64,000 nucleotides of DNA from Escherichia coli. GTDB lineage: Bacteria; Pseudomonadota; Gammaproteobacteria; Enterobacterales; Enterobacteriaceae. Within the stretch, counting starts at the first letter, position 1; the number at the start of each line of letters is the position of its first letter. The position numbers and the translations under genes are program-made. The DNA is taken from the NCBI RefSeq assembly GCF_003018255.1, contig NZ_CP027440.1; one strand, written 5' to 3'. A model generated the notes under the pieces. The model had not been told where the DNA came from. It was given only the letters and a program-made list of their open reading frames with translations, and made no database searches. Positions 11,068-49,904 of this stretch are shown one piece after another.

Positions 11068-11206
11068 GGTCTGAACTACGACATCCGTGATGGAATTAAA
11101 AAAAGTGCCCTACTATAGCAAATGCACTACCGGCAGGCATCTGACTTTCCGCGTGACTTTGTTAACGTCATTTACAGAAATTGACACATCAGATGCCTGC
11201 TTTACG

Positions 11207-12295
11207 CTACTGCGCGGTGGTAATAAATGACTGTAATTGGGCTTCGGTTTGCAAACGTTGCTGCAAGGTACTGGCTTCGGCTTTGCTGGCGAATGGGCCA
11301 AGCTGGATCCGCCAGACCGCGCCATTTTGAGTTACGCGACCGGGGACGCCGAACTTCTGTCCCAGTTGCTGTTGGTACTGTTGCGCACGCGCCTGATCGC
11401 TTACGGCCCCAACTTGCACCATAAAGTTGCCGCTGGCGCTTTGCGAGGCGGCTTGCGGTGTCACCATTGCAGGCGAGGTTGCAGGCGTTGTCGACGGAGC
11501 TGTAACAACGGGCTGTGGCGCAGGTGTTGGTTCGCTGCCTTCCAGAACTCCAGGCGCTAAGGTCGTTGGTGCACCGAGGAAACCGCTGCTGGTTACCGGC
11601 GCGCCGGTCGGATCTTCGCTTTTTAGCGTCGAATTACTGACCGGAAGAATGTCACCCTGCGGGCCAGACACTGAACTTGTTCCCGCGCCACCGCTTAAAT
11701 CGGGAGGTGCAGGCAGGGCGTAAGTCTGTTTAGCAACTGTGGTACAGGCCATACCAGGACCAGAAAGCGAACCATCCTGGGCGACAATAATCGGATCGAT
11801 ACGAACTTTGGTGTTGTTTGACGTGTTAAGACGGTCAGCTGCCGCGCGAGAAAGCGAAATAACGCGGTCGTTGCCGTAAGGACCGCGATCATTAATGCGC
11901 ACCACGATCATTCGCCCGTTAGCCAGGTTAGTGATTCTGGCGTAGCTGGGGATCGGAAGCGTTGGATGGGCCGCCGTCAGCTGTGTCGGATCGAAAGCTT
12001 CGCCAGAGGCCGTCAGGTTACTGCCGGGTTCGGCATCATAGATTGCCGCCAGTCCCGCCTGGCTAAATCGAGACGGATCCTGCACGATTTTGTAGCTTTT
12101 ACCGTCGCGCTGGTAATCCTGATTTGCCGTCGCGTTCAGTGGTTCGAAACGCGGGTCCGCCCCGCTAATTTCAACTATGGGGCCGTTACATACCGCAGGC
12201 TGCGGTACACTTACCGTCTGTTGCTGACCATCATCGCTTGTACATGCCGCGAGCATTCCTGCCGCGATGCAGATCCCGAGCCACTGCTTACGCAT
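11207..12295 (-). CDS. rlpA: septal ring lytic transglycosylase RlpA (362 aa)
   Basis: ORF track; lipoprotein signal (LAACTS), Pro/Thr/Ser-rich linker, C-terminal SPOR-like region. Confidence 0.93.
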   Translation of the reverse strand: MRKQWLGICIAAGMLAACTSDDGQQQTVSVPQPAVCNGPIVEISGADPRFEPLNATANQDYQRDGKSYKIVQDPSRFSQAGLAAIYDAEPGSNLTASGEAFDPTQLTAAHPTLPIPSYARITNLANGRMIVVRINDRGPYGNDRVISLSRAAADRLNTSNNTKVRIDPIIVAQDGSLSGPGMACTTVAKQTYALPAPPDLSGGAGTSSVSGPQGDILPVSNSTLKSEDPTGAPVTSSGFLGAPTTLAPGVLEGSEPTPAPQPVVTAPSTTPATSPAMVTPQAASQSASGNFMVQVGAVSDQARAQQYQQQLGQKFGVPGRVTQNGAVWRIQLGPFASKAEASTLQQRLQTEAQLQSFITTAQ

Positions 12296-12305
12296 TGCGC
12301 ACCTC

Positions 12306-13418
12306 TTACACGCTTTTCGACAACATTTTCCTGTGGGTGTGGATTGACATTACAATCCCGAACCCAGCCATCAGCACAATTAGCGCCGATCCTCCATAAC
12401 TGACCAGTGGGAGCGGAACCCCTACAACCGGCAGAATACCGCTTACCATACCAATATTTACGAAGACATAAACGAATAATATCAGCATTAAGCCGCCAGC
12501 CATGACGCGACCAAAGGTGGTTTGCGCTCTGGCGGCTATCCACAGCCCGCGCATGATCAGCAGAATGTAGAGAGCGAGCAGAATCAAAATGCCCACTAAT
12601 CCCAGCTCTTCCGCCAGTACCGCGAAGATAAAGTCGGTATGGCGTTCGGGGAGAAATTCAAGTTGTGACTGAGTGCCGTGCAGCCAGCCTTTGCCGCGTA
12701 ATCCGCCGGAGCCAATAGCAATTTTAGACTGAATAATGTGATAGCCCGCGCCGAGTGGGTCTGATTCCGGGTCCAGGAGCATCATTACGCGCTGGCGCTG
12801 GTAATCATGCATCAGGAAGAACCACAGAATCGGAATGAACGCCGCTACCAGCACTACTGCGACGCCAATCAGACGCCAGCTAAGGCCAGAGAGGAACAGT
12901 ACAAACAGACCGGAAAGCGCAACGAGGATTGATGTTCCCAGGTCAGGCTGTGCAGCCACCAGCAGCGTGGGCATAAATATCAGCACCAGCGCGATGCCAG
13001 TGTTCTTCAACGATGGCGGGCAAACGTCGCGGTTGATAAAGCGCGCTACCATCAGTGGTACGGCTATTTTGGCAATTTCCGACGGCTGAAAACGAACGAT
13101 ACCGAGGTCCAGCCAGCGTTGAGCGCCTTTAGAGATGGCACCAAAAGCATCTACTGCCACCAGCAAAATAATACAGATGATATAGAGATAGGGGGCCCAG
13201 CCTTCATAAACGCGTGGAGGAATTTGCGCCATCACCACCATGATGACCAGACCCATCGCGATTTGGCCGATTTTACGCTCCATCATGCCAATATCCTGAC
13301 CGCTGGCGCTCCAGATAACCAGGGCGCTGTAAACCAGCAATGCCAGTAAGATCAGCAGCATTGTGGGATCGAGATGGACTTTATCCCAGAATGTTTTTTT
13401 ATTCGGATTATCCGTCAT
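12306..13418 (-). CDS. mrdB: peptidoglycan glycosyltransferase RodA/MrdB (370 aa)
   Basis: ORF track; SEDS-family membrane protein. Confidence 0.95.
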
Positions 13419-36385: not shown

Positions 36386-36412
36386 AAAAAGCTCGCCGAG
36401 GCGAGCTTTTTT
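36386..36412. terminator. intrinsic terminator at the tRNA operon 3' end, convergent with ubiF
   Basis: agctcgcc (36390-36397) gag ggcgagct (36401-36408), T6 on plus and U-tract on minus. Confidence 0.8.
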
Positions 36413-49876: not shown

Positions 49877-49904
49877 AAAAAAGCCAACCTGCAGGTTGGC
49901 TTTT
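49877..49904. terminator. intrinsic terminator between convergent chiQ and fur
   Basis: Perfect 20-nt palindrome agccaacctgcaggttggct (49882-49901) flanked by an A-run and a T-run. Confidence 0.8.

Follow-up and report, generated by a model that had tools for sequence, protein, structure and literature searches.

The 139-bp spacer between rlpA and dacA of Escherichia coli contains a 12-bp perfect inverted repeat, and we suggest that this repeat is probably the main stem of a sense-strand RNA hairpin which defines or protects the 3' end of the rlpA transcript and whose descending arm is, as DNA, the -35 region of the dacA promoter. One stretch of DNA would then answer to two constraints, supplying one gene with its -35 box and upstream promoter DNA and the gene before it with the descending arm and the interior of its 3' hairpin. 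The element is an overlap of known signals, namely a 3'-end stem-loop and the next promoter, and not a new kind of element.

The inverted repeat and its RNA fold

The analysis covered a window of 64,000 nucleotides, by which we mean the whole stretch of E. coli DNA that was read, and the features of interest are collected in Table 1. The K-12 annotation contains no feature in the rlpA-dacA spacer. The preliminary description of this DNA had reported a perfect repeat between the rlpA stop codon and dacA, and its coordinates proved exact: GCAGGCATCTGA (11133-11144) is the reverse complement of TCAGATGCCTGC (11189-11200), 44 nt separate the two arms, and the nearer arm lies 6 nt from the TAG of rlpA. 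By chance, according to a first-order Markov model built on the window, 64 kb should contain 0.41 inverted repeats that are perfect over at least 12 bp and have a loop of at most 100 nt; the window contains five such loci, and scaling from the expected rate gives about 1 in 1000 for a chance repeat within the 139-bp spacer. The other four repeats are located at 6195-6312, 6693-6722, 36386-36411 and 49879-49904; the first (arms 6195-6206 and 6301-6312) has a 94-nt loop, and the remaining three have short loops and a terminator-like appearance. Of 5424 complete E. coli genomes, 5265 carry the sequence of the rlpA-dacA repeat unchanged, and it is single-copy, with a median of one place per genome over the 5424 genomes. 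It is therefore not a dispersed repeat, and palindromic elements of the REP/BIME kind and similar families were ruled out on this ground. A search of Rfam matched no family and returned only noise at E > 3.

Table 1. Positions of genes, promoter elements, RNA structures and mapped RNA ends in the window
Feature	Position	Strand	Remark
lipB, ybeD, dacA, rlpA, mrdB, mrdA		-	K-12 annotation in agreement
dacA	9856-11067	-	start codon ATG 11065-11067
rlpA	11207-12295	-	stop codon TAG 11207-11209
Ascending (5') arm GCAGGCAUCUGA	11189..11200	-	begins 6 nt past rlpA stop codon
Descending (3') arm UCAGAUGCCUGC	11133..11144	-	-38..-27 relative to dacA TSS; includes -35 hexamer
Inner helices UUUCUGU/GCGGAAA and UGAC/GUCA	11146..11180	-	E. 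coli fold
GTCAA-N5-GTAAA-N5-TTAAC block	11161..11185	-	about -55..-79 relative to dacA TSS; in hairpin loop
-35 hexamer ATGCCT	11135..11140	-	17 nt upstream of TATAGT; named in PMC9338883
Extended -10 TGCTATAGT	11112..11120	-	TATAGT invariant in the 49-sequence alignment
dacA TSS, K-12 664001	11106	-	SMRT-Cappable-seq; 5 nt past TATAGT
Term-seq RNA 3' ends, K-12 664017 and 664018	11122..11123	-	10-11 nt past descending arm; -16/-17 of dacA promoter
Antisense RNA 3' end, K-12 664101	11206	+	6 nt past hairpin, tail UUUACG

Folded as sense RNA, the repeat closes a 68-nt hairpin at the 3' end of rlpA. Its main stem consists of 12 perfect pairs (7 of 12 being G-C) and one U.G pair, which gives 13 bp in the RNA fold, and its interior forms two further short helices. 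The free energy of the hairpin alone was -31.4 kcal/mol for the sense strand versus -23.5 kcal/mol for the antisense strand, and the minus-strand RNA 11215..11060 folded at -49.5 kcal/mol, with z = -3.5 against 200 dinucleotide shuffles. In many other species the E. coli inner helices are replaced by a CUUUG/CAAAG extension of the main stem. The sense tail that follows the stem, CGGUAGUGC, has 2 U of 9 in E. coli, and the mean over 48 species is 2.25 U of 9; none of these species carries a U-tract directly 3' of the stem on the sense strand. A consensus terminator scan of the region also gave no match. The missing U-tract, the 44-nt interior and the negative consensus scan together indicate that this is not a canonical intrinsic terminator.

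Two other RNA structures in the spacer were considered and rejected. The fold predicted a second hairpin, GUGCAUUUGCUAUAGUAGGGCAC, with the -10 element in its loop and a U7 run behind it, as a candidate intrinsic terminator; RNAalifold retains only 4 invariant pairs of this hairpin with zero covariation, and Term-seq has no end at the U-run. An outer helix between the stop-codon region and the promoter spacer looked covariation-like by eye, with the candidates GCGUA/UAGUGC in E. coli, AUAACG/CGUUAU in Citrobacter and AAGCGGUU/AACCGCUU in Buttiauxella, and its own-versus-cross-species test gave p = 0.18. Judged from these sequences, such a helix would be lineage-specific at best.

Co-evolution of the two arms in Enterobacteriaceae

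A dacA-anchored scan yielded 80 loci across Enterobacterales, with Salmonella and Klebsiella not among them, and the rlpA-dacA spacer was extracted from each. The MAFFT alignment comprised 49 Enterobacteriaceae sequences. RNAalifold did not call the long hairpin on this alignment, and for this reason we wrote the helix explicitly from the E. coli register and then counted the pairs.

First, in minimum-free-energy (MFE) folds the region of the -35 hexamer was paired with the segment behind the rlpA stop codon in all 48 Enterobacteriaceae loci, and the paired segment began 4-13 nt past the stop codon's first base. Second, pairing cells amounted to 75.7% over the 49 Enterobacteriaceae versus 31-40% when the partner was slid, cells altered on both sides numbered 60 versus 26.5 +/- 6.9 in shuffles (0 of 500 reached 60), and the covariation score was 0.214 versus 0.138 after shuffling (0 of 500) and 0.06-0.10 for slid partners, all three comparisons being uncorrected for phylogeny. 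In the 49-sequence alignment, for example, columns 31-92 carry UA in 23 and CG in 20 sequences, and columns 24-99 carry AU in 16 and UA in 11. Third, when the arms were paired as duplexes independently of any alignment, own-species combinations averaged -19.5 kcal/mol compared with -15.6 kcal/mol for cross-species combinations, and 0 of 5000 permutations were as low (p <= 2e-4, phylogeny uncorrected). Fourth, 47 of the 49 Enterobacteriaceae showed z < -2 against shuffles of the post-stop segment, and this control was also significant in six Erwinia/Pantoea loci and one Serratia locus.

Finally, the mismatches carry information on the strand. Among the core cells that are not Watson-Crick pairs, 34 read G.U and 11 read A.C on the sense strand. 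A constraint on DNA or on antisense RNA would be expected to leave the two classes equal or reversed, and the excess of G.U over A.C therefore points to a sense-strand RNA rather than a DNA palindrome. The hairpin was also more stable as sense than as antisense RNA in 39 of 48 species. The ascending arm has no promoter constraint, and it follows its partner arm in evolution. These comparisons support, at the level of sequence, a co-evolution of the two arms as sense-strand RNA in which complementarity and not sequence is conserved. The length enclosed between the arms is 33-52 nt in Enterobacteriaceae, 24-36 nt in Erwiniaceae and more than 80 nt in Serratia.

Outside the group in which the long hairpin was counted, the same position holds other structures. 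In Rahnella (L070, L073, L076) and Hafnia (L068, L074), canonical intrinsic terminators were found within 50 nt past the rlpA stop codon, made of CGGGGC-N4-GCCCCG hairpins with T-rich tails, as in CGGGGC-TGCG-GCCCCG-TTTTTATA. The -35 region is unpaired with the post-stop segment in these two genera, the long hairpin having been replaced, and the presence of the terminators implies that, as a general rule, this position carries a 3'-end signal. In three Serratia loci (L050, L053, L054), the MFE folds join CCGGCAG, in the post-stop segment, to CTGCCGG of the -35 region over a distance of 80-170 nt, the intervening 80-170 nt contain a separate AGCTGAAA...TTTCAGCT hairpin, and only L053 passes the shuffle control for the long-range pairing.

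Mapped RNA ends and the dacA promoter

Published Term-seq data (PMC7815308) contain a minus-strand RNA 3' end at K-12 position 664018 with 91,306 reads; for comparison, 73,288 were counted at the ybeD terminator, which lies on the same strand. The neighbouring end 664017 is given in a second sheet. Both ends are classed there as 'orphan' and 'upstream ORF -54 dacA', which means that no TSS is listed upstream. Taking nucleotide 51 of each 61-nt string as the 3' end (according to the file header, with the sgrS row as a check), we placed the ends on K-12 at ...UCAGAUGCCUGC-CGGUAGUGCA (...GUGCA) and ...GCAU, just beyond the stem. We infer that the RNAs ending at 664017/18 originate from rlpA and that the hairpin causes or stabilises this end. 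The preliminary description had raised the possibility of a long-loop stem ending the rlpA transcript, to be judged by RNA folding, 3' end mapping and conservation of both arms. The covariation of the arms as sense RNA and the Term-seq ends 10-11 nt downstream bear out the 3'-end part of this proposal; the structure is, however, not a classical terminator, since it has no U-tract and its 'loop' is structured and conserved.

On the plus strand, an RNA 3' end at 664101 is present in all three Term-seq conditions, implying an antisense transcript that runs from dacA towards rlpA. SMRT-Cappable-seq (PMC6131387) recorded a transcription unit which starts at TSS 665332 and spans rlpA-dacA-ybeD. This minus-strand TSS lies inside mrdB, at about position 12437 of the window; rlpA is thus served by a promoter of its own, and because part of the transcription runs through the hairpin, any termination must be partial. 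Adams et al. list no Rho-termination region at 6639xx-6641xx, where the strong dacA promoter, firing 16 nt downstream, would mask any change in read-through. The TERMITe data gave no hit, and rlpA was not found in the Hfq/ProQ interactome literature searched.

The promoter on the other side of the overlap is known. ATGCCT and TATAGT have been named as the -35 and -10 elements of 'PdacA-3', and GFP was driven from the fragment GCCGG...ATG (PMC9338883), while SMRT-Cappable-seq places the dacA TSS at K-12 664001 (PMC6131387). With TGCTATAGT, with ATGCCT at a distance of 17 nt and with this TSS, the site has the composition of a sigma-70 extended -10 promoter. Most of the 48 Enterobacteriaceae loci have ATGCCW or GTGCCA as their -35 element. 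A consensus promoter scan gave no match although the dacA promoter is real, because its -35 is weak. Since the TSS at 664001 is downstream of the hairpin, the hairpin is situated wholly upstream of the primary dacA mRNA.

The block enclosed in the hairpin interior consists of three 10-bp-phased pentamers conserved across Enterobacteriaceae, and it resembles GTAAA-N5-6-GTAAA, the motif of CpxR; a perfect GTAAA-N5-GTAAA is found at the equivalent place in Yersinia, Hafnia, Cedecea and one Serratia (Serratia silvae). Both of the E. coli 15-mers upstream of dacA appear in a published PSSM screen, whose hits across the genome number more than 10,000, and the CpxR match is therefore only a lead. No link between Cpx and dacA was found in the published literature. 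The block is probably upstream regulatory DNA of dacA.

Some further observations concern the dacA leader. The 5' UTR (11068-11106, minus strand) is nearly invariant, reading CAYCACGGAYGTYGT..., and lacks a Shine-Dalgarno sequence close to the ATG; a small GGAY/GUUC helix within it shows one-sided changes only (UG 35, CG 12). The TSS is followed by C and by a U-run from +3, which is T7 in this window and T6 in K-12 and BL21, and this run is a possible site of transcript slippage. Two candidates were discarded: a sigma-54-like GG-N10-GC in CCGGTAGTGCATTTGC, spotted by eye, has an unconserved GG that is TG in many species, and a tiny uORF in the leader (ATG TCG TAG) has its ATG changed to ACG in 12 of 49 species. 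In one locus (L059:2152-2501, from the metagenome-assembled genome Enterobacterales bin_230) the spacer is 348 nt long; by eye, about 200 bp seem to be inserted in the dacA promoter between TTTGTTATA and TATAGT, perhaps as a small element of the mobile or repeat kind.

Origin of the 3' end and comparison with known systems

We suggest the following arrangement. The hairpin would form in sense transcripts leaving rlpA, which come either from the rsfS-rlmH-mrdA-mrdB-rlpA unit or from the promoter inside mrdB, and it would define and protect a transcript 3' end 10-11 nt past the stem. Its 44-nt interior would hold the conserved DNA upstream of the dacA promoter. Since the descending arm is the DNA of the -35 region, the dacA-proximal arm would be held by promoter function, and interior and descending arm together would be kept by the dacA promoter. 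The rlpA-proximal arm would evolve complementarity to the -35 region, so wrapping the rlpA 3' signal round the upstream promoter of dacA.

The distance between stem and end bears on how the end may arise. Intrinsic terminators typically have their 3' end 7-9 nt from the stem. A distance of 10-11 nt fits a hairpin-stabilised pause of RNA polymerase followed by release, and it also fits a 3' exonuclease of the RNase II/PNPase type stalling short of a stable stem. We favour these two routes, namely hairpin-stabilised pausing and termination or exonuclease trimming to the stem, over intrinsic termination driven by a U-tract.

A close rival to the pause and trimming routes is endonucleolytic cleavage of read-through RNA. 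Here an endonuclease would cut the rlpA-dacA mRNA in the AU-rich single-stranded stretch behind the hairpin (GUGCA|UUUGCUAUAGU), and the hairpin would only stabilise the upstream fragment, uncoupling the decay of rlpA and dacA. Read-through units are on record (PMC6131387), the mapped ends lie where an AU-rich unpaired stretch begins, the U-tract is missing, and Adams et al. do not list a Rho region, all of which agrees with cleavage; on the other hand, no 5'-monophosphate end or nuclease-dependence data were found for the site, and this account overlaps largely with the explanation we prefer, in that the hairpin is still the stabiliser of the 3' end. We regard it as rather unlikely.

The plus-strand end raises the question of whether the hairpin is instead an intrinsic terminator for antisense transcription from dacA to rlpA, with the sense end as a by-product of a bidirectional terminator. 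That end occurs in all three conditions 6 nt past the stem with a UUUACG tail, and antisense tails are slightly richer in U than sense tails (3.15 versus 2.25 U of 9). However, its read counts are near the lowest plus-strand values in the Term-seq table, the U-rich tails are confined to Escherichia and Citrobacter, the sense hairpin is the more stable one in 39 of 48 species, and the G.U pairs that prevail on the sense strand (34 versus 11) are A.C mismatches on the antisense strand. A main role of the hairpin on the antisense strand appears improbable.

We also considered that the hairpin-capped fragment itself, about 90 nt from the rlpA stop codon to -17 of dacA, might be a stable RNA derived from the 3' UTR with a trans-acting or coupling role, which we hold to be distinctly improbable. 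If it had such a role, the fragment could couple transcription of the elongasome operon (mrdAB-rlpA) to expression of PBP5 (dacA); coupling is conceivable because hairpin formation needs transcription through the dacA -35 and the response-regulator sites. The overlap of the arm with the -35 would in that case be a regulatory device, beyond mere compaction.

The preliminary description had alternatively read the repeat as a two-half-site operator affecting dacA. That the dacA-proximal arm includes the -35 hexamer agrees with some effect on dacA, and BolA, a candidate regulator (motif core GCCAG) that might bind the two inverted half-sites, possibly with looping, has been reported on the dacA promoter, its motif YYGCCAGH weakly resembling the arm core GCCWG. 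Several observations nevertheless speak against the operator itself. Depending on the species, the arms lie about 24 to 52 nt apart, and more than 80 nt apart in Serratia; the two arm centres of E. coli are separated by 56 bp, or about 5.3 helical turns, which puts the sites out of phase. Moreover, the arms diverge freely provided that pairing is kept, G.U is tolerated, and the BolA authors themselves count the motif, when one mismatch is allowed, in 39.5% of the 5' regions of all genes. A DNA operator is thus highly unlikely. A chance repeat or a relic without function is scarcely credible: five such repeats in the window are not rare in absolute terms, but compensatory changes over 49 species that 0 of 500 shuffles match, arm pairing that is stronger within than between species (p <= 2e-4) and 3' ends mapped at the stem all speak against it.

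A hairpin of rlpA origin, as we propose, would explain an 'orphan' Term-seq 3' end of E. coli K-12 and would give a boundary between mrdAB-rlpA transcripts and dacA. It would also be a case in which an unconstrained arm visibly follows a constrained arm across a bacterial family. In practical terms, editing of the dacA promoter, as in work on secretion strains (PMC9338883), or deletion of rlpA may disturb the signals of the neighbouring gene.

When compared with known systems, the element shares features with four of them. It resembles the hairpin-protected 3' ends of Rho-dependent or processed transcripts (Dar & Sorek 2018, PMC6061677) in having a stable hairpin just upstream of a sharp mapped end, no U-tract and a position at an operon end; it differs from that class in its unusual hairpin length of 68 nt, which includes a structured interior, in having as its descending arm the -35 region of the promoter that follows, and in that Adams et al. 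list no Rho region there. With canonical intrinsic terminators it has in common a 12-13-bp stem right after the stop codon, G+C-rich and within their usual range of about 5-14 bp, and RNA 3' ends nearby, whereas its 44-nt folded interior contrasts with their 3-8-nt loop, its sense strand has no U-tract, and its end lies at +10/+11 instead of +7 to +9. As in bidirectional terminators, 3' ends on both strands flank one hairpin; unlike in those, the flanking genes are co-directional and not convergent, and only the plus-strand tail is U-rich, and only in Escherichia and Citrobacter. On the side of dacA, 'PdacA-3' is like other extended -10 sigma-70 promoters, with TGCTATAGT, ATGCCT 17 nt upstream and a TSS 5 nt past the hexamer. 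What is added to this known promoter is its overlap with the preceding gene, whose 3' hairpin contains the -35 and the region upstream of it.
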